A DNA stretch of 54,907 bases from an uncultured Anaerolineales bacterium (lineage in GTDB: Bacteria > Chloroflexota > Anaerolineae > Anaerolineales > UBA11858): positions 1 to 54,907 of the forward strand of contig CAYUXO010000004.1 in assembly GCA_964448865.1 (NCBI GenBank), given 5' to 3'. A program made the translations under genes and the position numbers. Position 1 is the first letter of the stretch. Every line of letters starts with the position of its first letter. Under the pieces are notes generated by a model that saw nothing but the letters and a program-made list of their open reading frames with translations, did no database searches and was not told the origin of the DNA. Of this stretch, positions 21,408-34,847 are shown piece after piece.

Positions 21408-23978
21408 TTAACCCGTTCTCCGTCTTTTTATCCACCTCACACTATTCGACCGGCAGGAAGGACAAATTCTTTCCTGGTCAGAATTGTAGATTACATCCCA
21501 GGATTCGCCGCAAACCAGGCATTGGAATTCAGCTGGTTGGTTTTCGTCTTTCGGCCGGGGATTGCGAGGACCGGGAATCCGACTGTCTTTCAATAACTCC
21601 CGGGTATTGGAAATCATTTCCGGGGTCACCTCCAGGCGTTTCTCTTCAGACTGTTCCATGATATGCTGCCAGCGTTTCCCTTCTGCTGCGGAACACCATT
21701 CCAGCTGCAATCGTGAAGGATCCAGTTCCAGCTTTTCCATACCATCCCAGAGGCCATCCAGCCGGCGGGTAGTGCTTCGGTTAGCGTCAATATAATGACA
21801 GTCCACATAATGGCATCCCGAGACCAGCACCACTGGAGCCCCTTTGCGAAAGGCATACCATACAAAATCCGGACTCACTCTACCGGAGCACATGGTACGG
21901 ATGATGATGGCATTGGGGGGATAAGCCATCCGCCCCACTCCGGCTGTATCCGCGCCGGCATAGGAACACCAGTTGCAGGCAAAAGTCACTATGTTATCAC
22001 CAGGATTCTCTTCCAGCATAGCATCAATCTGGGCATAAATGGCCTGGTCTGAAAAGTGTCTCATGGCAATGGCGTTAAATTTGCATTCCGCTGCGCAGGT
22101 TCCACAGCCAGTACAGGCAGCGGTGATAACCTCAGCCAGTTGGCCTTTTTGCCAGGTAATGGCACTGAAAGGGCAGACATCCGCGCAGATACCACACAGT
22201 TTACAAAGATCTTCTTCTACCACAGCCGTTATGGCATCCACTGAAAACTCATCTTTATTGAGCAGGATCGCTGCCCGCGAAGCGGCAGCGCTGGCCTGGG
22301 TAACACTCTCCCTGACATCTTTGGGACTCTCTGCGCCGCCAGCGATAAAGACTCCCTTGGTTGGTGTATCGACCGGGCGCAGTTTGGGATGAGCTTCCCG
22401 CAAAAACCCACTGGGGGATTTGGAAAGACTGACCATCTGCCGGATAGTCTCTGTATTTCTTCCCGGAACAGCTCCAACTGCCAAAACCAACATATCAAAG
22501 ATGTGCGATTCCAGGCGGTTGCTGGTGGTATTTTCCACCAGCAGGTGCAGGTCACGGGTCTCGGGATCTTCAGATATTTCACCTGGCAATCCCCTGATAT
22601 AAGTTACTCCGGAACTTTTACTGCGCATCAACAACTCTTCAAAACCTTTTCCGAAGGCCCGCAAATCTGTATAAAAAACCGTCGATTCCACTTCTGGATA
22701 GGTATCATGCAAATACTGGGTAGACTTGATGGTATTCATACAGCAGATATTGGAACAATAGGGATTGCCCCGCTCTGGATCCTGGGTCCTTGATCCTACA
22801 CATTGTATGAAACCAACTTTTTTAGGAAATGCCAGGTCACTGGGGCGGCTCAAATGTCCTTCCAGGGGGCCGCTGCTGCAGATCAACCTCTCAAACTCCA
22901 GGCTGGTAACAACATTCTCATAACTGGAATATCCATATTCATCCAACGGTGTGGGATCATAGATATCCATGCCGGTAGCCACCACCACCACACCGACATC
23001 GACCTCGATGATCTCATCACTCATGGCAAAATCAATGCAGCCTTTTTCACAGGCTTCGATGCATTTTCCACAGGCGATGGGGTTTTGTCCCAGGCATTCA
23101 TTGGCATTGACGATATATGCTGAAGGTACCGCCTGGGGAAAGGGCAGAAATATTGCTCGGCGACTTCCCAAACCTACCTGGTACTCATCCGGAATGACAA
23201 CAGGACAAACCTCGACACAATCACCACAGGATGTGCATTGGGTTTCATCCACATAACGGGCTTTTTTCCGGATCCGGACCATAAAATTTCCTACATAACC
23301 AGATATATCTTCAACTTCTGAGTATGCTAGTAATTTGACTTTGGGATGTCGACCGACATCCATCATTTTGGGTCCAAGTATTCAAATACTACATTCTATA
23401 TCCGGATATACCTTGTCGAGCTGAGCCATGATCCCGCCAATGCTCGGCTGCCGTTCCACCAGGTAAACCTGGTGCCCAGAATCTGCCAGGTCCAGGGCTG
23501 CCTGAATGCCGGCCACTCCTCCTCCGATCACAAGAGCAGCATCCGTAACCTGGATCTGCTCCTCTTCCTGGGGAATCAACCAGCGCGATCTGGCCACTGC
23601 CACTTTAAGGATCCGTTTAGCTTTCGCAGTAGCAGCCTGACCATTTCCCGGGGTCACCCAGGAACAATGCTCCCGGATATTAGCCATCTCCAACAAATAG
23701 GGATTTAGCCCCGCTCCGGTTATGCAATTTCGGAAAATCACCTCATATGATGTGGGTGAGCAAGAAGCTACCACGACCCGGTTCAGATTATTTTCCCGGA
23801 TCGCCTTCTGGATCTCCTTCTGTCCTGGATCAGCACAGGTGTACTTATTGCGAATTGCGGTGACAACTCCCGGCAGGCCAGCGGCATACTCACGCAGAGC
23901 TTCCGTGTCAACAGTTCCGGCTATATTAGACCCACAATCACAGACAAAAACCCCGATGCGTATATTAGTATCTGCCAA
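21408..23978 (-). CDS. hdrA: Selenocysteine-containing HdrA-MvhD fusion flavoprotein (856 aa, Sec199)
   Basis: ORFs 23382-23978 and 21408-23366 are in frame across one TGA: LDKVYPDIECSI-U-ILGPKMMDVGRHP. Has CDCG, IREHCSW, GGGVAG, QCVGSR, CSNICC, HPKLRP, ferredoxin motifs and MvhD motifs (CNWCSY, MCSGR, GCH..DCHY). Confidence 0.9.
23344..23384 (-). promoter_or_regulatory. Sec UGA codon plus bacterial SECIS-like hairpin
   Basis: UGA (23384-23382), 20 nt, then perfect stem GGAUGUC-GGUC-GACAUCC (23361-23344). Confidence 0.8.
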
Positions 23979-24032
23979 AGAACCCCTCCTTTTTTCTGCT
24001 TCTTCGATAAACCTAAATGAATATTCCTGTTG

Positions 24033-25178
24033 TCAAATCGTTTCAGCAATAATTGTAGCCAGGTCCCTGATCTGCACCGTTTCCTCCTCCCGGAGGGGGT
24101 CCTTCTGGGCGCATTTCAGATGGATCTGGCATTTGATACAAGTAGTAATCAGGATATCCGCTCCAGTTGACCTGGCTTCCGATAACCGCTCTGATTGGAT
24201 CTTTTTGTTTACCTGTCCGCAGGTTGACCAGCAGCTGGTACCGCAGCATATGCTGGATTGGCGGTTGTGATCCATTTCAACCAGCTCATATCCCGATTGC
24301 CGGATTAAATCCCGGGGCTGCTGGTAGATCCCTGAAAATCTACCCAACCGGCAGGGATCCTGATAGGTTGCTGAGCCATTTTCAATCCTTGCTTCTGCTC
24401 TCCCCTCACTGGCAAATCCAGACTGCTCAAGCAATTCAACCAGATGCAATACCTGCAGACCATGGTCTCCAACCTGTTCCGGATAAGTATGTTTGAGGGT
24501 ATAGGCACACTCCGGGCAGGTGGTGATAATCCTCTTTGCTCCTGATTCTTTAATTATTTCCAGGTTTAATCCCGCCAATCTCTGGAAATTTTCCATATCT
24601 CCCTGCCAGAATTGGTCATGGCCACAGCAGCGTTCATTTTCAAGCAGAATAGGTTCAATTCCAAGATGATTGAAAATTTTGACTGCTGCCCGGGCTATTT
24701 CAATTCCTTCAATACCTAAACCTGCAAAAGCTTCCTGATAATAGGGCAGACAACCCGGGAAATATATAGTGTCAGAATCTTTACTTGTCCGAAGATCACC
24801 ACCTAACCAATCCAGACGATTCTGGGATAAATTTGGGTCCGTCATTAAACGACCCCAGGTCTGGATCATCCCGCTGTGGGTGCAATCCCCGGAGAGGTTT
24901 TTGTTTCGGGCTATTTGACGGGCATCCTGGATAAAGGAAGAAAAATCCACCAGGGAGGGACATATTTCACTGCAGCGCTGACATGTTAAACAGGACCACA
25001 ATAGCGGATCATCCAGAACAGGATCTTCCCCTGAGCTGACGGCAGTCTCCACCAGCAGCCTGGGGCTGGTATAGCCGTCGACAAGATGGATGGTAATCGG
25101 ACAAACAGAACTGCATTTTCCGCAGTCCAGGCACAACCAGGCCCGATTGGTCTGAATGATCTCCTTAAATGGATCCAT
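24033..25178 (-). CDS. HdrD-like Fe-S oxidoreductase (2x[4Fe-4S] plus two CCG domains)
   Basis: CLDCGKCSSVCP, CLTCQRCSEICP, FPGC, RCCG, TTCPEC, YQDPCRLGR, ICCG, TTCIKC. Confidence 0.88.
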   Translation of the reverse strand: MDPFKEIIQTNRAWLCLDCGKCSSVCPITIHLVDGYTSPRLLVETAVSSGEDPVLDDPLLWSCLTCQRCSEICPSLVDFSSFIQDARQIARNKNLSGDCTHSGMIQTWGRLMTDPNLSQNRLDWLGGDLRTSKDSDTIYFPGCLPYYQEAFAGLGIEGIEIARAAVKIFNHLGIEPILLENERCCGHDQFWQGDMENFQRLAGLNLEIIKESGAKRIITTCPECAYTLKHTYPEQVGDHGLQVLHLVELLEQSGFASEGRAEARIENGSATYQDPCRLGRFSGIYQQPRDLIRQSGYELVEMDHNRQSSICCGTSCWSTCGQVNKKIQSERLSEARSTGADILITTCIKCQIHLKCAQKDPLREEETVQIRDLATIIAETI

Positions 25179-25180
25179 TA

Positions 25181-25582
25181 TTAACCCTGGATTATTCTTT
25201 CTGCTGACATTATCAGGTCTAAATCACTCACAAAACTCTCTCCATCGTTGGCTTTGAGAAGGGAAAACTGGAGCTGGTTTTCTCTGTAGCCCAGCAATTT
25301 CAGTATGGCACTGGTTTCTTGATATACACTCCGGGCGGCCTGATTGCCGGAATTATGCTGGCATTCCCCTTCAGAACAGCCAACCAGATAAACTCCATCT
25401 GCTCCATTTTCAAAGGCTTTTAAGATTATTCCAGGTGTTATGCGCCCCAGGCAGGCCAGTCTAATGGGATAAACCGCAGTTGAATAAGATAAGCGCTTTG
25501 TACCGGCGTCTTCCAGGCTGCTGTACCCATTCCAATTACAGCTAAACACAATGATCTTTTTTTCCGGTTTCTTTTTGCTCAT
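25181..25582 (-). CDS. mvhD: MvhD/FlpD family [2Fe-2S] subunit
   Basis: IIVFSCNW, IRLACLGRI, AFENGADGV.LVGC.EGEC; start placed at ATG 25582. Confidence 0.85.
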   Translation of the reverse strand: MSKKKPEKKIIVFSCNWNGYSSLEDAGTKRLSYSTAVYPIRLACLGRITPGIILKAFENGADGVYLVGCSEGECQHNSGNQAARSVYQETSAILKLLGYRENQLQFSLLKANDGESFVSDLDLIMSAERIIQG

Positions 25583-25583
25583 T

Positions 25584-28500
25584 TCACACCAGGATTCTTT
25601 CCAGTATGTGTTCCAGCTCATTATCCTGTTGAGTTCCGGGAATGATGGCCCCGGATGGGCAATGGGCTGTACAGATTCCACAATCAAAACACAATAATGG
25701 GTTGATATAAGCTGAACTGATTTCTCCAACTTTGATTACTTCGGGAATCCCAAATCCGCAGATATCCTGGCAGGTCCCGCAAGACCGGCAGCGCTTAGGA
25801 TCCACTTCAGCTGCTGGTTGTTTCACGCGGCTTGAAACTTTGCTGATCCAGGCTTTAATTCTGGCTGCGGCCCCTGTTCCGCTTACCTCAGGTGGCAGTT
25901 CTGGCGAGCAGATCACCAGACCGTAATCTACCGTATCCAGACTCATGCGCGTGCCTGACATCAGGAGCCGCTGATTGGATAATAAAAGAGACTTTGAAAT
26001 GTGGTCCAGCTCAGCTCCGCTTCCCGGGGCCAGGACCAGGCAGTCTGTCCGGTAGCTACCATCAGGCCAATCCGCCCGATAATGACCACCCACCCTGATT
26101 ATTTCCCCTGCCATTACCTCAGCGATATCAGATACTAAGCCAAGCTTTGCCAGGGAATCTTGACAGTACTTCGCAGATGCCCCATTACCTACGATCAGAA
26201 TGCTGTTTGGTATAGCAGATGGGTCTGGTTTGCCGTTTTTTCCGCCAGGTACCCTCACCAGGGCGGACCGGATCAATACCCGGGCAGCAGCGGTGGTCTT
26301 TTTCTTGTTCCGGGGATGTGCCCAGGCACACTGTTCCCGAATATTGACAAATTCAATGGGCAGGGATCTAACCAAAGACCTGAAGATGCCCAGGTTTTCT
26401 TTGCAGCGCAAACGCTGGTAGGTACAACTGTGGCAAATTTGATCCAGGGAACAACAGCTGCAGGCAGCCAGGATGATCCTTTCCAGGTTGTTCTCCCGGG
26501 CAATTCTTCTGATGACGGCTGCGCCATCAGCTGTGCAAGAAAATGGCAGTTCCCTGGCATAATCGATTTCTGGCCAGGATAAGGCTTCTTTGCAGATACC
26601 GGCTGTATCCACTAAGGAAGAAATCTCTTCTCCGCACTGGCAGACGATCAATCCTGTTTTATTCTCACCCACCCGGTCAGCTGGTTCATATCCATCGAAA
26701 AGGATCTTATTAATAAAGCCGTCCTTTTCCATCACCTGGTAAGCAGATGCTGATCCTGCCAGCGGATCAGGTGCTGCCATGATTATCAAGTCTTGCCGGG
26801 ATGCGGGCAGAGAGAGATCATCTGCTGCGATCACTGCGGAGACATGGATTGACCAGGTAGAAGCTTTTTGGTTGTGGATCACAGCACCGGGCTCACATAT
26901 TTCCACGCAGGCCATACATTCACTGCAGGGACCACAAGCCAGGCAGCGCCCCGCTTCTTGAAGAGCACTCTTTTCACTCAATGCCAGATCAACCAGTTGG
27001 AAATTATTCAACCGGTCATTTACAGGCAGACTTGGAATGGATTTTCGCGCCTGATGGGCTTTTTCTATGTTATCAAGCCGATATTCCATCTCTTCCTGAC
27101 TGAGAATTACTTGCTCCCTATCTTTTCCGTGTTCACTAGTTTGACCCATTAGATAATTATGGATGGAATGGGCAGCCCGGTGGCCTTCTCCAACTGCATC
27201 AACTACAAAAGTAGTGTTACCCAGTCGGAAATCTCCCGCTGCAAATAGACCCTCCAGCGGGGTCATCAGCCGATCATCAGTCTGAACTTCACGGCCATTA
27301 TCCCTAATTAATCCCTTATCAAGGGGTAAAAATGAGGGGTCAATCTTCTGCCCCAGAGCCCAGATCACCAGATCTCCCGGAATAAGATGTTCCGTACCCT
27401 CCAACTCTTTAAACTGGCGCTTACCATCCACCACATCGCCAACTTCGGCTTCCAGGCAAAGAACACCCTCAATTTTCTTTTTATCCAGGCTGATTTCCTT
27501 AAAAACTCTTCCTTTGATAATTTCAATGCCTTCTTCAATAGTTGCCTGAAGTTCGTGATCCGATGCCCGAATTCCCCGGCAAAGAACCTTAACCTCATCA
27601 ACCCCTAATCGCAGGGCAGATCGGGCTGCATCCAGTGCGACATCTCCCCCTCCAAGGACAATCACCGTGCGGCCTGTCAGCTTATCACCTTTACCAAAAC
27701 TGACCCGTTTCAAAAAATCCAGGCTGAGCCAGTTATCCTTGTGGTCAGCGTTCTTGATGTCTGGTTTAAGAGCTACAACAGCACCTGCCGCGGCCAAAAC
27801 CGCATCAAAACCATCGTCCATCAGTCCGGGTATATCATCCACCCAGGTATTCAGCTTCAGATCTATTCCCTCTGCCAGGATACCCTCGATTTCCCAGCTC
27901 AATTGCTCGTGAGAAACCCGGTGGGGAGGTATACCCACACGCATCATACCTCCCGGTTCGGGATTGGCATCAAAGATTTTGACCTCATGACCCATTCGGG
28001 CCAAGTCCCGTGCCGCAGTCAGTCCGGCCGGTCCCGCTCCAATAATGGCAACTTTCTTTCCGGTAGGTTCCCGTTCAGGTGGCGGATCACCATCATTTTC
28101 TTCCTGATGATCGAAAGCCCAATCAGCCAGATAATGTTTGAGAGCCATGATATTCACAGCCTGGTCAAGCTGGCCACGGGTGCAGGCAGTTTCACAAAGG
28201 TGATTACAAACCCTTCCGCAAACAGAGGGGAAAGGCAGAGCATCATGGATCAGATCATAGGCCTCCCGGTAACGTGCTTGACCTACCAGCGCAACATAGC
28301 CCTGGACATGAATGCCTGCCCTGCAGGCATTGGAGCAGGGAGACACTCCCGCTTTTGCGATCACAGCACAATCTGGCTGTCCACCAAAATAAATTGCTTT
28401 CAGGTCAGTTCCTGGAATGGTGATCGGGCAAACTTCCAGGCAATCACCACATGCTGTGCACTTTTCCAGGTCAATATAACGGGGACTCTGGTTGAGATCC

Positions 28501-28748
28501 ACCTGAAAACCCCCGGCCACTTTTTCCAGGTTCAACACCTCAGAATTTGTCCAAACCTTGATCCGGGGATGTTTAAGAATTTCCAGCAGCCGGGTATTAT
28601 TTAAATGTGGTTGGTATCCATCCCCTAATATTTCCCCGATAAAAGGACCCGATTCCACCAGGTTAACAAACAGCCCAAAATCTGCCAGATCAGATGCTGC
28701 CTGGATTCCCGCCGGTGTGGTGCCTAGGATCAAGACCTCTTTTTTCAT
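25584..28748 (-). CDS. HdrL-like flavoprotein (HdrA fragments with an inserted GltD/NfnA-type NAD(P)H module)
   Basis: PRYID.EKCTACGDC..VCP, PC..AC, CGRVCNH.CE..C.R, IIGAGPAGL, GGGDVALD, FAAGD, CQCG, NIREQCAW, terminal 2x[4Fe-4S]. Confidence 0.82.
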   Translation of the reverse strand: MKKEVLILGTTPAGIQAASDLADFGLFVNLVESGPFIGEILGDGYQPHLNNTRLLEILKHPRIKVWTNSEVLNLEKVAGGFQVDLNQSPRYIDLEKCTACGDCLEVCPITIPGTDLKAIYFGGQPDCAVIAKAGVSPCSNACRAGIHVQGYVALVGQARYREAYDLIHDALPFPSVCGRVCNHLCETACTRGQLDQAVNIMALKHYLADWAFDHQEENDGDPPPEREPTGKKVAIIGAGPAGLTAARDLARMGHEVKIFDANPEPGGMMRVGIPPHRVSHEQLSWEIEGILAEGIDLKLNTWVDDIPGLMDDGFDAVLAAAGAVVALKPDIKNADHKDNWLSLDFLKRVSFGKGDKLTGRTVIVLGGGDVALDAARSALRLGVDEVKVLCRGIRASDHELQATIEEGIEIIKGRVFKEISLDKKKIEGVLCLEAEVGDVVDGKRQFKELEGTEHLIPGDLVIWALGQKIDPSFLPLDKGLIRDNGREVQTDDRLMTPLEGLFAAGDFRLGNTTFVVDAVGEGHRAAHSIHNYLMGQTSEHGKDREQVILSQEEMEYRLDNIEKAHQARKSIPSLPVNDRLNNFQLVDLALSEKSALQEAGRCLACGPCSECMACVEICEPGAVIHNQKASTWSIHVSAVIAADDLSLPASRQDLIIMAAPDPLAGSASAYQVMEKDGFINKILFDGYEPADRVGENKTGLIVCQCGEEISSLVDTAGICKEALSWPEIDYARELPFSCTADGAAVIRRIARENNLERIILAACSCCSLDQICHSCTYQRLRCKENLGIFRSLVRSLPIEFVNIREQCAWAHPRNKKKTTAAARVLIRSALVRVPGGKNGKPDPSAIPNSILIVGNGASAKYCQDSLAKLGLVSDIAEVMAGEIIRVGGHYRADWPDGSYRTDCLVLAPGSGAELDHISKSLLLSNQRLLMSGTRMSLDTVDYGLVICSPELPPEVSGTGAAARIKAWISKVSSRVKQPAAEVDPKRCRSCGTCQDICGFGIPEVIKVGEISSAYINPLLCFDCGICTAHCPSGAIIPGTQQDNELEHILERILV

Positions 28749-28764
28749 GGATTTCCCATTAAAC

Positions 28765-30336
28765 TTAACCCGTCGTCAGCTCCAATCCCTTTTGATAACC
28801 GATTTCGAATACTTCCAGATTGATATCCACGGTTTTGGGTGGAACGGATTCAGCGATGGCTTGCTCCATGGCTTTTTTATCAACTATGCCCTCAACTGCA
28901 GCCCAGAACCCCAGCATAACGGTATTTGCAGCCCGGTTATTACCAGCCTTTTCTGCGATTTTGGTGGCCGGGATACCCAGGGTTCGAATATCCTTCCTGT
29001 GATCCTCGGGAAGTTTGATTAACTCATTATCGAATAACAGCACACCATTCAGTTTTAATCTGGAAACATATTTATCGTAGGCTCCCTGTGACATCATGAT
29101 CATGCTGTCTGGTTCAGTCAAGTGGGGATGGTGTATGGGGCTGCTGGAGATCACAACCTGGGATCCGGCAGCGCCACCCCTGGCTTCAGGTCCATAACTC
29201 TGGGTGAAGCAGGCTTCCAGATTATTGTATACAGCAGCAGCCATACCGATGATCTTACCGGCACTCATAATGCCTTGCCCGCCAAACCCGCCCAGCTGGA
29301 TTTCTTTTCGCGGAAGTTTTCTTCTTTCAACTTTCAGATCGACCCGTTTGTCAAGGGATAATTTTTCCCTCTGCCAGAATTTTTCAGCCAGGACAACACG
29401 CTGGTCCATAGCTTCTTTGAAATCTGGCCTGTCCTCAGCCAAGAACTCACCCTCTACAATTTCAATTATTTCCCCTTTTTCATTTACCTTGATATGAGCA
29501 TCTTTGGGATGAAGGTTACTTTCCGTTCGTCCTACCAGTTGGTAATGTTTCATTACTTCTAGGCCTCGCCGGCGCAAGTTTTCCGGATCAAGACCTCTGC
29601 CTTCAGGGTTCCAGCGAGAATAAGCTGTAGAGCATGGAGCAATGATTTCCACAAAACTGAAACCTGAATGGGTCAGCGCTTTTCTCAAAGTCCAATCCAG
29701 TTGACGGGCATGTAAAGTTGTCCAGCGGGCAACAAAAGAAGCTCCACTAGCCGCTGCCAGATAAGGCAAGTTAAAAGGGTATTCATAATTGCCGTATTGA
29801 GCTGTAACTGCCCGGGCTTCATGGGGCGTGGTGGGACCTACCTGCCCTCCTGTCATGCCGTAATTGAAGTTGTTTACACATATCACGGTGATACCCAGGT
29901 TTCTTCGAGCTGCATGAATAAAATGGTTGCCGCCGATACCGGCGATGTCGCCATCACCTGATATGACGATTACCTTCAGATCAGGATTGGCTATTTTCAA
30001 TCCAGTGGCAAAGGGAATTGCCCGACCGTGGGTAGTATGAAATGAATCCAGCCTGACGTATCCAGCAATTCTGCCGGTGCAGCCTATTCCAGATACAACA
30101 GCAACTTTGTCCAGATCCCAGCCCTGATTCTCTTCCAGCCACTTCAATGAGCTGATAAAGGATGTCAATGCTGTTCCCAGGCCGCAGCCCTGGCACCAGA
30201 TATGGGGCAGCCGTTCTCCCCGCAGCAAATCATCCATGGGGTGCAGGCCAGTGATCCAATCTCCCTCTGACGCTGACTCATAAGTCATGATGCGGGTTTT
30301 CTTTTTTTTATTAATTCTTTCAACTGTCATACTCAT
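28765..30336 (-). CDS. 2-oxoacid:ferredoxin oxidoreductase beta-gamma fusion
   Basis: WCQGCG, SGIGC, HGRA, TPP motif GDGD..NN, then gamma domain GFGGQG..QSYGPEARGG. Confidence 0.9.
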   Translation of the reverse strand: MSMTVERINKKKKTRIMTYESASEGDWITGLHPMDDLLRGERLPHIWCQGCGLGTALTSFISSLKWLEENQGWDLDKVAVVSGIGCTGRIAGYVRLDSFHTTHGRAIPFATGLKIANPDLKVIVISGDGDIAGIGGNHFIHAARRNLGITVICVNNFNYGMTGGQVGPTTPHEARAVTAQYGNYEYPFNLPYLAAASGASFVARWTTLHARQLDWTLRKALTHSGFSFVEIIAPCSTAYSRWNPEGRGLDPENLRRRGLEVMKHYQLVGRTESNLHPKDAHIKVNEKGEIIEIVEGEFLAEDRPDFKEAMDQRVVLAEKFWQREKLSLDKRVDLKVERRKLPRKEIQLGGFGGQGIMSAGKIIGMAAAVYNNLEACFTQSYGPEARGGAAGSQVVISSSPIHHPHLTEPDSMIMMSQGAYDKYVSRLKLNGVLLFDNELIKLPEDHRKDIRTLGIPATKIAEKAGNNRAANTVMLGFWAAVEGIVDKKAMEQAIAESVPPKTVDINLEVFEIGYQKGLELTTG

Positions 30337-30370
30337 CCCTCCCGGGATCTTGTATTATCCAGCTTGTTGA

Positions 30371-31561
30371 TCAAGCCGGCTGTCTTTCTGCCGCCCCTTT
30401 CCGAATAGCCTCCAGGACATCCCGGGGATCTAATATATCTCCCCCGGGCTTATGAACACCGATCACCTTTGTTTTCCCACTAACACAACGCTCGACTTCT
30501 CTAGCGATCTGTCCCATATTGATCTCCGGGACAATAAATGCAGCGATCTTCTCTGCCAGTTTCGAAATCAGATCTTCGGGAAAAGGCCAGACGGTGATCA
30601 AGCGCAAATAACCAACTTTTAATCCTTCTTTTCTGGCCTGTTCAATGGGCCAGAGGGAGGTACGGGCGGATATACCATATGAAACCACCACCACATCTGC
30701 TCCGCGAAGTTTTTCTTTCTCAACCTGGATGATGTCTTTACGGTTGGCGTTGATTTTTTCCATCAAACGGGCGACATTCCATTGGTTGGCTTCGGCATTC
30801 ATGGCCGGGTAACCCCGCTCATCGTGGGTCAATCCTGTAACATGGATCCTGTAGCCATCCCCTGCTTTAACCATGGGAGATATATAACCAGGATCTCCTT
30901 TTGGTCCAGAGCGGTAAATTCTAAAACGATCCGGTTCCTGCTCTCCTTTCAAAACTTGGGGACGGTTAATGATCTCAACCTCTTCCACCGGAGGAATAAC
31001 CACTTTTTCCGTCATGTGTCCTACCTCGGCGTCTGTCATAACCAACACCGGTGTTCGGTATTTTTCAGAAAGGTTAAAAGCCCTCAGCGTCAGATCAAAA
31101 AGCTCCTGGGGAGAACTGGGGCAGAGTGCAATGATCTCGTAGTCACCGTGCGATCCCCAGCGAGCCTGCATCATATCCTGCTGGCCAACCAGAGTTGGTA
31201 ATCCCGTGGATGGCCCCCCCCGCTGCACATTGACCAGCACACAAGGAGTTTCAAGCATAATTCCCAGGCCAAGATTTTCCATCATCAGGGAAAAACCAGG
31301 ACCGCTGGTTGCTGTCATGGACTTGACCCCTGCCCAGGATGCCCCCAACACAGCATTCATTGATGCCAGTTCATCCTCCATCTGCATAAAATTTCCCGCC
31401 ACCTGGGGAAGGCGCACAGACATGCGTTCGGCAATTTCGGTTGCCGGAGTGATGGGGTATCCAGCAAAAAAGCGGCAGCCTGCCAAAATCGCACCTTCCG
31501 CACAGGCATGATCTCCAAGCATAAAATGTTCCCCTGTAAGCCTGCCTTGTTCTTGATTCAT
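30371..31561 (-). CDS. 2-oxoacid:ferredoxin oxidoreductase alpha subunit
   Basis: GYPITPATE, QMEDE, TATSGPGFSLM, QRGGPSTG.PT, PEINMGQ. Confidence 0.92.
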   Translation of the reverse strand: MNQEQGRLTGEHFMLGDHACAEGAILAGCRFFAGYPITPATEIAERMSVRLPQVAGNFMQMEDELASMNAVLGASWAGVKSMTATSGPGFSLMMENLGLGIMLETPCVLVNVQRGGPSTGLPTLVGQQDMMQARWGSHGDYEIIALCPSSPQELFDLTLRAFNLSEKYRTPVLVMTDAEVGHMTEKVVIPPVEEVEIINRPQVLKGEQEPDRFRIYRSGPKGDPGYISPMVKAGDGYRIHVTGLTHDERGYPAMNAEANQWNVARLMEKINANRKDIIQVEKEKLRGADVVVVSYGISARTSLWPIEQARKEGLKVGYLRLITVWPFPEDLISKLAEKIAAFIVPEINMGQIAREVERCVSGKTKVIGVHKPGGDILDPRDVLEAIRKGAAERQPA

Positions 31562-31986: not shown

Positions 31987-33018
31987 CTAATACATCATCT
32001 GGTTGATCTCATCCAGTGACTCTTGCGTGGGGCGGAGTTTATCAACCGGAAGCCGGTTAAGCGCTGTTTCCGGGAGATTATAAAGATCAAAGAGCGCTTT
32101 CTGTTTGGGATTGATATAGATCAACCCGGTGATCAATTCATTATTGTCATTGGCTTTTTCCAGCATCACCAGAGCCCGGGCGCGATCTGTAGGTTCATAA
32201 TCCTGAGCCAGTTTTTTGAGGATGATATGGGTCCCATCATACAGGGGAACTTCCAGGGTTTCTCCTTTTTCGTACTGAACCTTGATAGCCTTCACCGGGG
32301 GCACAAAAGAAAGCTCATGCAAAGCAACCTCATGAGATTTACCCCAGGCATAGGAGTGGAAGGCTTCATCTGAATTATTGAAAGTCACACAAGGGCTGAT
32401 CACATCTATAACCGCAATTCCTCTGTGGAGGATTCCGGCTTTAATGAGAGCCTTCAGCTGCTGGGGGTCACCCGAAAATGTCCGGGCCACAAAAGACGCT
32501 CGTCCTGCAATGGCTTCCCAGACTATATCCACCGGAACATAGCGGTTCTGACCTTGTTTCTTTAGCGCCAAACCCTCTTCGGCGGTGGCAGAAAACTGGC
32601 CTTTGGTGAGACCGTAGACACCGTTATTGGCGACAATGTAAAGCATAGGTAGATTACGCCTGGTAACATGCTTGAACTGGCCCATACCAATGCTGGCAGT
32701 ATCACCGTCTCCGCTGACACCGATGCCAATCAGGGATGTATCCCCAAATAATGCGCCGGTTGCCAGGGAAGGCATGCGCCCGTGCAAGCCGTTAAATCCA
32801 AATGAACGATCCAAGAAATAAGTGGGAGCTTTACTGGAACAACCAATTCCACTGACTTTGAGGATGCGTTCAGGGGGGATGTCAAGTTCATAGCAAGCTG
32901 CGATCATCTGGGCAACGATGGCGTTATGTCCACAACCCAAACACAATGTAGATCGTTTGCCCTTATAGTCTTCCTTGGATAATCCGATTTCGTTGAGTTT
33001 TTTGGTTTTCTCAGCCAT
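31987..33018 (-). CDS. 2-oxoacid:ferredoxin oxidoreductase beta subunit (second enzyme)
   Basis: LCLGCGH, SGIGCSSK, HGRM, SGDGD, NNGVYGLTKGQ, SPCVTFN. Confidence 0.92.
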   Translation of the reverse strand: MAEKTKKLNEIGLSKEDYKGKRSTLCLGCGHNAIVAQMIAACYELDIPPERILKVSGIGCSSKAPTYFLDRSFGFNGLHGRMPSLATGALFGDTSLIGIGVSGDGDTASIGMGQFKHVTRRNLPMLYIVANNGVYGLTKGQFSATAEEGLALKKQGQNRYVPVDIVWEAIAGRASFVARTFSGDPQQLKALIKAGILHRGIAVIDVISPCVTFNNSDEAFHSYAWGKSHEVALHELSFVPPVKAIKVQYEKGETLEVPLYDGTHIILKKLAQDYEPTDRARALVMLEKANDNNELITGLIYINPKQKALFDLYNLPETALNRLPVDKLRPTQESLDEINQMMY

Positions 33019-34847
33019 TAAGCTCTCTCCTCATCCATCACAGCGCCTTTAATCCAACCTGCACACAGCGGCAGTCCATCAAGGAGTGCTAACGAGACCA
33101 GGTCTGCTGCCCTGTCGGGAATTTCAAGCGATAAGATTTTATGCATCTGGCCGTCCCGGTTATTTTCAACAACATATATTTTTTCCTGCGACTTAATAAA
33201 ATCAATCACCTTTTTGCCGACCGGCAGAGATCTCAATCGCAGATAATTGAGTTTGATGCCATCTACCTTGAGGTAATCCAGGGCTTCCTGGACAGCTGCA
33301 TCAGTTGAACCAAAAGCGATCAATCCGGTTTTTGAGCCGCGCTGTTTATTGATCACTGGCTCAGGAAGGTCTGCCACCGAGGATTTGATCTTGTTTTTGA
33401 TCCGGGTGAGATTTTTTACCCAATCATCTGGATTCTCACTGTAGTTTGCATAATCGTCATGTCCGGTTCCTCTGGCAAAGTAGGCGCTCCGTGGATGAGT
33501 GTTGCCAGGTATAGTCCGGTAAGGGATAAAATCGCCATCCAGGTCTTTATACCTGCCCCATTCATCCTTTATTTTTTCCAGGTCCTCTTCCCAGAGAACC
33601 TTACCTCTATCAATGGGGGTATCAGGATATTCAAAGGGTTCAGACATCCATTGATTCTTCCCCAGGTCCAGATCTGAGAGGACTAGGACAGCTGTTTGAT
33701 ACTTTTCTGCCAGATCCTGAGCTTTCCAGCCAAACTCAAAACATTCCCGTATATTTCCGGGTATGAGCAGGATATGTTCTGTATCACCCTGCCCCAGATA
33801 ATAGGATAAAGTGATATCACCCTGGGCAGTTCGGGTTGGCAGTCCGGTACTGGGTCCAACCCGTTGTATGACCCAGATCACAACCGGGATCTCGGCGAAA
33901 TAAGCCAGGCTAGTATATTCGCCCATCAAACTCAGTCCAGGACCTGAGGTCGAAGTTACGGATCTTAAACCAGACCATCCAGCACCGATGCACATGCCAA
34001 TGGCTGCCAATTCATCCTCAGCCTGAAGGATGGCGTAGGTGTTTTTTCCGGTCTCAGGGTCTATTCTAAGTTTGGGAGCAAATTCCAGCATCGCTTCCGG
34101 GAGACTGGTGGCAGGGGTGATGGGATACCAGGCCATAAAATGCATGCCACCAAAAATAGCTCCCAACCCCCCGGCAGTATTACCATCTACCAGAATACAA
34201 CAGTCTGTTAATTTTCGGGGTTCAATTCCAATTGATAAATCCAAATCCAGATTATCATCAGCCCATTGGAAAGCCAATTGGATAATGTGAAGGTTAAATT
34301 CAACTGGACTTCGTTTTCCCTTGAAATGAAATTCCAGGGCACCTTCTATGGAACCAAGCTCGATGCCCAATAAGTTGGCCAGGATTCCCACATAGACCAT
34401 GTTGGCAACAAATTTACGAAGATCCCGGTGGGGTTTTGCTTCCCGAACCAGGTCTTTGACCGGCATGGGCACCACGATCATATCTTCCCGGACGACGGCT
34501 TGTTTGATATCGTCCGCATAGAGGAACAAACCGCCTTCTACCAGATCATCCTGGTCTTCCGTAAAGGTACTGGGATTCATAGCCACCACGATATCCGCCA
34601 CATTCCGGCGGCCGGCATACTCTTTCTCACTGACCCGGATCTTATACCAGGTCGGCAAACCCTGAATATTCGAAGGAAAGATATTCTTTCCGGATATAGG
34701 AATACCCATCTTAAATATCGCTCTAAGCAAAGTCAAATTTGCTGTTTGGCTTCCGGAACCATTAACAGTACCAATATTGATTGAAAATTCATTAACACCG
34801 CTCAAACGGGATTGAGTGTGTTTTGCAGAACCTTTACTTTGAACCAT
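33018..34847 (-). CDS. 2-oxoacid:ferredoxin oxidoreductase gamma-alpha fusion subunit (second enzyme)
   Basis: NGSGSQTAN, FPSNIQGLPT, WYPITPATS, QAEDELAA, TSGPG, RVGPSTGLPT. Confidence 0.92.
   Translation of the reverse strand: MVQSKGSAKHTQSRLSGVNEFSINIGTVNGSGSQTANLTLLRAIFKMGIPISGKNIFPSNIQGLPTWYKIRVSEKEYAGRRNVADIVVAMNPSTFTEDQDDLVEGGLFLYADDIKQAVVREDMIVVPMPVKDLVREAKPHRDLRKFVANMVYVGILANLLGIELGSIEGALEFHFKGKRSPVEFNLHIIQLAFQWADDNLDLDLSIGIEPRKLTDCCILVDGNTAGGLGAIFGGMHFMAWYPITPATSLPEAMLEFAPKLRIDPETGKNTYAILQAEDELAAIGMCIGAGWSGLRSVTSTSGPGLSLMGEYTSLAYFAEIPVVIWVIQRVGPSTGLPTRTAQGDITLSYYLGQGDTEHILLIPGNIRECFEFGWKAQDLAEKYQTAVLVLSDLDLGKNQWMSEPFEYPDTPIDRGKVLWEEDLEKIKDEWGRYKDLDGDFIPYRTIPGNTHPRSAYFARGTGHDDYANYSENPDDWVKNLTRIKNKIKSSVADLPEPVINKQRGSKTGLIAFGSTDAAVQEALDYLKVDGIKLNYLRLRSLPVGKKVIDFIKSQEKIYVVENNRDGQMHKILSLEIPDRAADLVSLALLDGLPLCAGWIKGAVMDEERA

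Follow-up and report, generated by a model that had tools for sequence, protein, structure and literature searches.

A UGA-containing HdrA-MvhD fusion gene from an Anaerolineales genome predicted to encode an HdrA2-type selenoprotein

HdrA is a classic selenoprotein family of bacteria and archaea, and bacterial members with selenocysteine (Sec) have been on record since 2006 (Zhang et al., 2006; PMC1794560). The roles of the residue concerned, Cys197 or Sec197, have been described for archaeal proteins (PMC9012536; PMC13518236). In Methanothermobacter HdrA, Cys197 is a ligand of the N-terminal [4Fe-4S] cluster of the partner protomer, and in Methanococcus maripaludis HdrA, Sec197 forms a Se-S bond and has been proposed to relay electrons between the FAD and the N-terminal [4Fe-4S] cluster (PMC9012536; PMC13518236). 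Bacterial homologues of a further form, the HdrA2 of Methanosarcina acetivorans HdrA2B2C2, have also been noted (PMC5296606).

Here we describe a gene of this kind in a window of 54,907 nucleotides, by which we mean the whole stretch of DNA analysed, from an Anaerolineales (Chloroflexota) MAG of 198 contigs that is 91.6% complete. A preliminary description of the window had read two listed ORFs on the minus strand, 23382..23978 (198 aa) and 21408..23366 (652 aa), as a single frame whose only interruption is TGA 23384-23382. Our frame check agrees: ORF list and sequence put both in the same frame, and the TGA is the sole break between them (context ...DKVYPDIECSI*ILGPKMMDVGRHP). The 856-aa read-through product proposed there also holds, since 21408..23978 (minus strand) is open from end to end, with zero further internal stops, once the TGA is read as U, and the product gives one unbroken match to the HdrA2 profile. 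We conclude from the sequence that this is very probably one gene for an 856-aa HdrA2-type flavoprotein, with UGA199 decoded as Sec by way of a downstream hairpin. The features of the gene and of its upstream neighbours are as follows.

21408..23978, minus strand: hdrA2-type gene for an HdrA-MvhD fusion, 856 codons and a TAA stop, with a TTG start at 23978-23976
23985..23989, minus strand: Shine-Dalgarno GGAGG, 6 nt upstream of the TTG start, read from the sequence
23382..23384, minus strand: in-frame UGA, putative Sec codon, residue 199, pairing with Cys197 of 5odc_A
23362..23381, minus strand: 20-nt spacer from UGA to hairpin, made up of codons I L G P K M plus a portion of the M codon that follows
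23344..23361, minus strand: SECIS-type hairpin in which a GGUC apical loop caps the 7-bp stem GGAUGUC/GACAUCC
21639..21992, minus strand: MvhD (FlpD) domain, fusion residues 663-780, Pfam PF02662, E = 3.3e-40
24033..25178, minus strand: HdrD-like/HdrCB-fusion Fe-S protein, 4Fe-4S dicluster and two CCG domains, Pfam CCG and Fer4_8
25181..25729, minus strand: stand-alone mvhD, Cys-type, Pfam FlpD, E = 1.1e-32
25584..28748, minus strand: 1054-aa HdrL-like protein in which a GltD/NfnB-type NAD(P)H flavoprotein is joined to ferredoxin domains and an N-terminal domain of HdrA

With M. maripaludis HdrA (Sec197; PMC13518236) the predicted protein shares the Sec column, the C-x-x-U motif and the HdrA domain order, and Sec at the Cys197-equivalent column would place it in the HdrA selenoprotein family. 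In the Methanococcales genes, an archaeal SECIS lies in the 3' UTR, whereas the Anaerolineales gene has an in-frame bacterial hairpin just past the UGA. It further differs from them in its fused MvhD, in a context that lacks Vhu and Fwd, and in its bacterial host, which makes CoM-S-S-CoB an unlikely substrate. The Sec-containing HdrA, HdrL and MvhD described for Deltaproteobacteria and Clostridia (PMC1794560) and for Desulfobacterium autotrophicum (PMC2702500) belong to the same selenoprotein family, and those organisms have the same neighbourhood logic (hdrL-mvhD, hdrD, hdrA) and a full selABCD set. Unlike the deltaproteobacterial and clostridial cases as described in these sources, only HdrA would carry Sec here, the MvhD, HdrD-like and HdrL-like genes having no in-frame TGA; in addition, HdrA and MvhD form one polypeptide and the host is an Anaerolineales MAG. 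The HdrA-MvhD fusion is common to this protein and M. acetivorans HdrA2 (PMC5296606), and NCBIfam HdrA2 is its best model. It departs from the system reported there in having Sec for Cys, in a single HdrCB-fusion partner in place of separate HdrB2 and HdrC2, and in a host in which F420 would not be expected. Set against the bSECIS consensus model (PMC13188914), the hairpin is minimal, with no conserved lower stem, and its sequence hardly changes over many phyla, whereas bSECIS elements are described as usually unlike one another. The Anaerolineales gene is an unsurprising new member of a long-known selenoprotein family.

In one chain, the fusion has an HdrA core, made up of the N-terminal domain, the FAD/TrxR-like domain and the ferredoxin domains (inserted and C-terminal), and then MvhD; the chain ends in a short zinc-ribbon-like tail. 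NCBIfam HdrA2 (NF040770) matches residues 7-787 over profile positions 1-774 of 777 in a single stretch at 1095.2 bits, 5 bits below the curated cut-off of 1100 for a query that had C instead of U. In comparisons with PDB chains, HdrA 5odc_A (5-652) aligns to residues 7-657 at roughly 50% identity across 650 residues, and MvhD 5odc_D (7-123) to residues 662-778. Because one NF040770 stretch covers both halves and the alignment to 5odc_A crosses the break without a gap, we treat the two ORFs as a single gene. Its product is the only canonical full-length HdrA found in the host assembly.

In the same alignment, U199 falls in the column of Cys197 in the solved HdrA 5odc_A, which is 'X' in 9sfi_A, and thus at the second Cys of the C-x-x-C beside the FAD domain (C196-S-I-U199). 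The residue is likewise the second Cys in the DKxFPxxDCxxC motif that had been recognized earlier. The codon at the site is TGA in 95 of 108 related genes and TGT or TGC in the other 13. Among the relatives' genomes, 18 of the 29 loci containing the site have TGA, and all 11 with TGT or TGC are a paralogue (42-45% identical); on named MAG contigs the counts are TGA in 77 of 80 loci, TGT in 2 and no motif found in 1. Both gene halves reach up to 88% protein identity in TGA-bearing relatives. Contigs from three independent studies have no change at 23382-23384, so at the level of contigs rather than raw reads the TGA is retained and not replaced by TGC or TGT. A second Sec in some orthologues, suggested by a count of an extra TGA, was rejected, this TGA being their true stop codon. 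We also noted two contigs from an RNA library, each 151 nt long and with 12 differences, that come from a relative and span 23227-23375 and 23380-23529; no change of the TGA is listed for them, and as contig data they are not proof of transcription of the present gene.

A probable Chloroflexota host, suggested beforehand from the sequence, agrees with the nearest named records, which are Anaerolineales MAGs at 75-87% identity. A search of the genome for selA, selB, selC and selD found all four: selA (in two pieces at contig ends, an assembly break), selB, a tRNA-SeC(tca), and a Sec-type selD with U in CAGUASK. TGA terminates 370 of the 1077 long ORFs of this genome; the genetic code is therefore standard.

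A SECIS-like hairpin had been proposed 20 nt past the TGA, and a perfect stem-loop, GGAUGUC/GGUC/GACAUCC at 23361-23344 (minus strand), does begin exactly 20 nt past the A of the TGA, with its apical loop starting 27 nt after the UGA. The published bSECIS ranges call for a loop of 3-9 nt, a stem of 4-16 bp, a G in the first two loop positions, a spacing of 16-37 nt and an MFE of -7.5 or lower (PMC13188914); checked against them as given in that source, the element agrees with them throughout, with a 4-nt loop beginning GG, 7 bp, 27 nt and -10.2 kcal/mol. Folded alone, the 26-nt hairpin reaches this energy at z = -2.42 (6 of 200 shuffles as good), and in its 71-nt context the fold is no different from shuffles (z = -0.90; 37 of 200). 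An Rfam scan of 23200-23500 at E <= 10 gave no family that fits the hairpin; its one hit, a plant-virus element on the other strand, is a chance match. No further copies of the hairpin core were found in the host's own genome. As seen in the single sequence, the hairpin is only suggestive, and the evidential weight comes from the comparison of relatives.

The comparison took in 91 distinct Sec sequences of about ten phyla, and at hairpin codons +8 to +12 the synonymous sites are frozen in all 91; these sequences are related, so the number of independent events is smaller. GAT, GTC, GGT and CAT are each used in all 91, and the Arg codon is CGA in 78, CGG in 10 and AGG in 3, with pairing preserved throughout. 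In contrast, the spacer codons of the relatives vary synonymously, with a codon entropy of 1.0-1.9 bits, and each amino acid that is invariant at +1 to +5 is encoded by 2-4 different codons in the 91 sequences. The constraint on the hairpin therefore acts at the RNA level. All seven pairs are retained in 87 of 89 distinct sequences, and the RNAalifold consensus of these 89 has the 7-bp stem as its only conserved structure; a conserved lower stem, which we looked for in the same analysis, was not found. In two Cys forms whose peptide is identical, other codons appear (GTG/GTA, GGA, CAC), a contrast supplied by two sister sequences that count as one event. The best stems of Cys forms have 4-6 bp versus 6-9 bp in Sec forms, with mean MFEs of -5.4 versus -10.4 kcal/mol, and a 6-bp remnant stem persists in two Cys forms (L032 and L108). 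In the distant Sec orthologues L022-L024, another hairpin lies equally far from the UGA; since its register is shifted by about 1.5 nt, it cannot be counted as covariation, and an 18-sequence alignment held no compensatory change on both sides of a pair. The earlier proposal could be checked by asking whether relatives conserve the hairpin, and they follow the expected division: orthologues keep the TGA and the hairpin, and paralogues have Cys without such a hairpin.

These data bear on other ways of reading the break. That the TGA arose by nonsense mutation or misassembly, making the locus a pseudogene or a sequencing artefact, might be suspected from two ORFs called mechanically in a MAG of 198 contigs and 91.6% completeness, but the identical TGA in 95 related genes whose halves are up to 88% identical in protein, its retention in the contigs of three other studies and its position exactly on a conserved Cys leave that scarcely credible. 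A different possibility is that the UGA stops translation, giving a 198-aa protein, and that ribosomes re-initiate at the ATG ATG five codons on, yielding a split HdrA or a selenium-gated truncation. The two ATG codons do follow shortly after the UGA, and under selenium starvation termination at a Sec UGA is expected to compete with Sec insertion. Split and tandem HdrA forms also occur naturally, as described in PMC9012536 and PMC1794560. However, the break lies within the FAD-binding domain, a region uninterrupted in solved HdrA chains, the Met codons belong to a PKM(M/V)D motif conserved even in Cys forms, and the ATG ATG has no preceding Shine-Dalgarno. Re-initiation would also leave no role for the frozen hairpin or for the complete Sec machinery, and we consider it very unlikely.

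It is likewise highly improbable that the UGA is read as Cys or Trp, both ordinary amino acids, through a near-cognate tRNA or under a reassigned code. Cys does work at this site in homologues, but TGA frequently serves as a stop in this genome (the 370 of 1077 long ORFs above) and ends several orthologues of this very gene, the genome has tRNA-Sec, selA, selB and a Sec-type selD, and the hairpin fits the bSECIS model. The in-frame UGA thus almost certainly encodes selenocysteine, selenium incorporation itself being what we infer from the sequence. In the Sec-decoding reading that we prefer, SelB carrying Sec-tRNA(Sec) would bind the 18-nt hairpin during translation, so that Sec is inserted at codon 199 and termination avoided, and Sec199 would stand in for the second Cys of the C-x-x-C beside the FAD domain.

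The neighbouring genes suggest a setting for such a protein. The product of 24033..25178 (minus strand) matches the NCBIfam TfrB, GlpC and HdrC-like models and has no in-frame TGA, and a homologue is the immediate upstream neighbour, in the same orientation, at 44 of the 71 related loci with enough flank. For the stand-alone mvhD, the true start is probably later than the listed TTG; a hidden Sec was considered for its product and rejected, as the translation contains no TGA and the upstream stop is not TGA. The domain make-up of the HdrL-like protein agrees with that of 'HdrL' as described in PMC2702500, and two 2-oxoacid:ferredoxin oxidoreductases adjoin the locus. The products of the three upstream genes, an HdrL-like NAD(P)H flavoprotein, MvhD and an HdrD/HdrCB-like protein, are most likely the partners of the fusion. 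Together they probably form a soluble complex for flavin-based electron bifurcation or confurcation, which would join NAD(P)H, ferredoxin from the adjacent oxidoreductases and some disulfide.

A broader and more doubtful proposal is that hdrL-mvhD-hdrD-hdrA2(Sec) constitutes a mobile, obligately selenium-dependent bifurcation unit, with the hairpin GGAUGUC-GGUM-GRCAUCC as a near-universal SelB ligand in some ten phyla and a Cys196-Sec199 relay. Sec199 is retained in 93 of 95 clade members, and Desulfobacterales copies nest within the Anaerolineae clade. Were the unit mobile, these copies could stem from one horizontal transfer, and a Cys196-Sec199 selenylsulfide would be the obligatory relay from the bifurcating FAD to an N-terminal-type [4Fe-4S] cluster, which could be that of the HdrA-type N-domain of the HdrL-like partner.

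Knowledge of how selenoproteins are encoded is unchanged by this gene. For annotation, the locus is best entered as a single selenoprotein of 856 aa instead of a pseudogene or two fragments, and the organism counted among selenium users; if the gene were left split, metabolic models of marine-sediment and vent Anaerolineales would lose the assembly's only canonical full-length HdrA. The minimal, nearly invariant hairpin is a compact candidate SECIS for recoding experiments, and the large bacterial clade in which Sec is nearly always kept offers many natural sequences with which the role of Sec could be tested.

The preliminary description had joined two listed ORFs into one frame, broken by a single TGA at 23384-23382 and followed 20 nt on by a hairpin, and sequence and translation bear out every particular. 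The elements are as follows.

23382..23978, minus strand: 198-aa ORF of the ORF list
21408..23366, minus strand: 652-aa ORF of the ORF list
Minus strand: TTG start of the hdrA2-type gene, read from the sequence, with GGAGG 6 nt before it
23361-23355, minus strand: 5´ arm of the stem, GGAUGUC, beginning 20 nt past the UGA
23354-23351, minus strand: loop, GGUC
23350-23344, minus strand: 3´ arm of the stem, GACAUCC

On the minus strand the context reads GAA TGT AGT ATT TGA ATA CTT GGA CCC AAA ATG ATG GAT GTC GGT CGA CAT CCC. With TGA translated as U, 21408-23978 stays open as one frame for 856 residues, of which U is number 199, and ends in TAA. Residues 7-787 match positions 1-774 of the 777 in NCBIfam NF040770 (HdrA2, the HdrA-MvhD fusion) in one stretch, at 1095.2 bits, just below the curated cut-off of 1100. 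Pfam places an FAD/Rossmann domain from residue 149, ferredoxin domains, and FlpD/MvhD at 663-780. Among solved structures, the HdrA chains 8rvu_a and 5odc_A align with residues 7-657 (E about 1e-221 to 1e-223) and the MvhD chain 5odc_D with residues 662-778; the alignment to solved HdrA is gap-free across the break. Residues of about 790-856 (21411-21620, minus strand) form a tail with a zinc-ribbon-like CxxC...CxxC pattern, for which Pfam returned no family. Of 89 Sec orthologues whose 3´ end is complete, 37 share this pattern, chiefly in the Anaerolineae/Desulfobacterales clade, and the rest have a Lys/Glu-rich tail.

A fragment alignment (residues 150-260) equates position 199 with residue 197 of 5odc_A, in ldktfptnDCsiCilapk, and 9sfi_A carries an 'X' in the same column. 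According to the available text of PMC9012536, the N-terminal [4Fe-4S] cluster of one HdrA protomer has Cys197 of the other protomer as a ligand. In Methanococcus maripaludis HdrA, the accessible part of PMC13518236 describes a Se-S bond between Sec197 and a cysteine, and suggests that Sec197 serves as a relay linking FAD to cluster A3, with its exact role called unresolved by the authors.

The genome of the window (2.71 Mb, 198 contigs, 91.6% complete) holds the machinery for Sec insertion. selA scores above the Pfam cut-off but is divided between an end of contig C14 and an end of C11, an assembly break; a SelB winged-helix domain lies in a 635-aa open frame; and ARAGORN finds one tRNA-SeC(tca) among 36 tRNAs. 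selD (354.8 bits) itself contains one in-frame TGA, in ...SKCAGUASKL.... TGA is an ordinary stop in this genome: of 1077 mechanical ATG-ORFs no shorter than 300 aa, 370 terminate with it, 523 with TAA and 184 with TAG. Further HdrA-like genes, on contigs C123 and C51, are Cys-type and belong to longer frames with several domains, such as DKTFPTNDCAMC on C123. A search with this query found no canonical stand-alone Cys-type HdrA back-up in the 91.6%-complete genome; same-genus genomes have one.

The hairpin lies within all four published bSECIS constraints, as set out in the available text of PMC13188914, with a 4-nt loop, a 7-bp stem, GG at the loop start and 27-nt spacing, at -10.2 kcal/mol. 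We compared codons across 91 distinct Sec sequences with the common peptide GPKMMDVGRH; these sequences are related to one another, so the counts are not independent. The hairpin codons GAT, GTC, GGT and CAT are each present in 91/91, and Arg is CGA in 78, CGG in 10 and AGG in 3, each of the three preserving the pairing to the U opposite. Positions +1 to +5 (I, L, G, P and K) are just as invariant in residue, and each is encoded by two to four different codons (codon entropy 1.0-1.9 bits). Two Cys forms with the same peptide have GTG/GTA, GGA, CGG/AGG and CAC/CAT instead. All 7 pairs form in 87 of 89 distinct 66-nt windows and 6 in the other two, and the RNAalifold consensus of the 89 returns the 7-bp stem alone. 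The best contiguous stem in the allowed zone is 6 bp in 4, 7 bp in 69, 8 bp in 21 and 9 bp in 1 of 95 Sec genes, and 4-6 bp in 13 Cys genes; the mean 28-nt MFE is -10.4 kcal/mol for Sec genes versus -5.4 for Cys genes.

Part of this stem is dictated by the peptide, because the Cys forms L032 and L108 still have 6 bp of it around a 6-nt loop. The remnants fit a Sec-to-Cys conversion, judged from sequence, and that of L108 looks like its relic. The 71-nt fold was no better than its shuffles (z = -0.90), no pair had changed on both sides, and Rfam gave no match to the hairpin. Distant Sec orthologues carry a different, off-register hairpin, UGACGC-GUC-GCGUCA or a 9-bp version, with its loop from 26 nt past the UGA.

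Metagenome contigs, rather than raw reads, from three studies apart from the possible source also cover the site. In each of runs X2 and X7 a single contig spans 22900-23900 with two differences, and in X9 one covers 23367-23543 with three; the TGA is unchanged in all. In the bin 23342-23375 depth rises 4- to 20-fold (X2, 307 versus about 71 beside; X9, 531 versus 17-30). The jump is made up of short contigs of other organisms at a match of at least 85%, and this pile-up over the hairpin is an independent sign of nucleotide conservation.

We searched the window's own genome and 40 relatives; 33 of these 41 gave a match at E <= 1e-50. Thirty loci were fetched, with the site present in 29 (L020 begins past it). 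TGA occupies the site in 18/29: 14 loci of the same genus (80-91% identity), the three distant loci L022-L024 (44-47%) and the window itself. The other 11 have TGT or TGC; each is a copy of one paralogue, 42-45% identical and about 676-690 aa long, behind which mvhD stands as a gene of its own. A count of two TGAs in some orthologues proved to be the Sec codon plus the true stop codon. In two same-genus genomes (loci L021 and L036) the orthologue appears as two or more overlapping or fragmented matches, which frameshifts or faulty assembly may explain; both the hairpin and the Sec TGA persist.

From contigs of species-representative genomes we took the best 80 of 561 confirmed stretches. By identity, MAGs of Anaerolineales or Anaerolineae come first among the named records (75-87%), followed by Desulfobacterales (71-74%) and, further down, other Chloroflexota, Zixibacteria, Calditrichota, KSB1, Marinimicrobia, WOR-3, Ignavibacteria and others. 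The site is TGA in 77 of these 80 and TGT in two (L078 and L108); a motif search found no site in L085. In a FastTree tree of 105 rows (93 Sec, 12 Cys), with the site masked as X and three rows with too little sequence on either side of it left out, the 10 paralogues fall on one side with support 100. Within a 92-row Sec clade the two TGT forms group as sisters. Two changes of state are enough for the Sec/Cys pattern. This pair, from Dehalococcoidia/Chloroflexota MAG contigs, comprises the only Cys forms in that clade and has the same downstream peptide in other codons. Five Desulfobacterales MAG copies (L046, L047, L049, L053 and L059) form a nested clade, support 100, in an otherwise Anaerolineae clade and, at 71-74% identity, resemble the window more closely than do many copies from Chloroflexota (63-68%); this suggests horizontal transfer or mis-binning.

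Upstream, also on the minus strand, lie further genes.

24033-25178, minus strand: HdrD/HdrCB-like protein, 4Fe-4S dicluster and two CCG domains
25181-25729, minus strand: MvhD, Cys-type
25584-28748, minus strand: 1054-aa 'HdrL-like' fusion of a GltD/NfnB-type NAD(P)H flavoprotein (134-637), an HdrA N-terminal-domain match (698-870) and ferredoxin domains
28765-31561 and 31987-34847, minus strand: two 2-oxoacid:ferredoxin oxidoreductase (OFOR) gene pairs, directly upstream of the hdr cluster

The stop of the 1054-aa fusion overlaps the listed mvhD start, and the true start is probably later. The fusion corresponds to the 'HdrL' type of Desulfobacterium autotrophicum, in which mvhD follows each of hdrL and hdrA (PMC2702500, available text). 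NCBIfam 'diclust_near_Sec', a family that takes its name from its nearness to selenoprotein genes, gives the fusion a weak match as well. Among the 80 named loci (the best 80 of 561), an HdrD-like gene lies immediately upstream on the same strand in 44 of 71 with at least 1300 nt upstream, mvhD is next in 37 of 40 with further flank, and an HdrL/GltD-like gene is next in 21 of 37 with still more. OFOR beta/gamma homologues were found upstream of the hdr cluster in 12/109 related loci searched. By homology and gene order, HdrA2 and the products of the three hdr-cluster genes upstream would assemble into a soluble complex for flavin-based bifurcation or confurcation that connects NAD(P)H, ferredoxin and some disulfide, and in which the Cys196-x-x-Sec199 pair may act at the junction of FAD and the N-terminal cluster, as in methanococcal HdrA.

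HdrA was counted among bacterial selenoprotein families in 2006, with 16 members in Deltaproteobacteria and Clostridia (PMC1794560, accessible part), and is listed in a 2026 review as well. Bacterial homologues of HdrA-MvhD fusions are described in the available portion of PMC5296606, and Sec-type formate dehydrogenases, SelB and hdrABCD operons are reported from Anaerolineales single-cell genomes (PMC4959059; PMC5736913, in the text available). The accessible passages of the papers found on HdrA and Anaerolineae selenoproteins name no Sec-HdrA in Chloroflexota. Since the HdrA family and the fusions have already been described, the Sec-HdrA2 of the window adds to a known selenoprotein family and is therefore no new kind. 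The call is correct and of use for annotation, and would be no surprise to a specialist.
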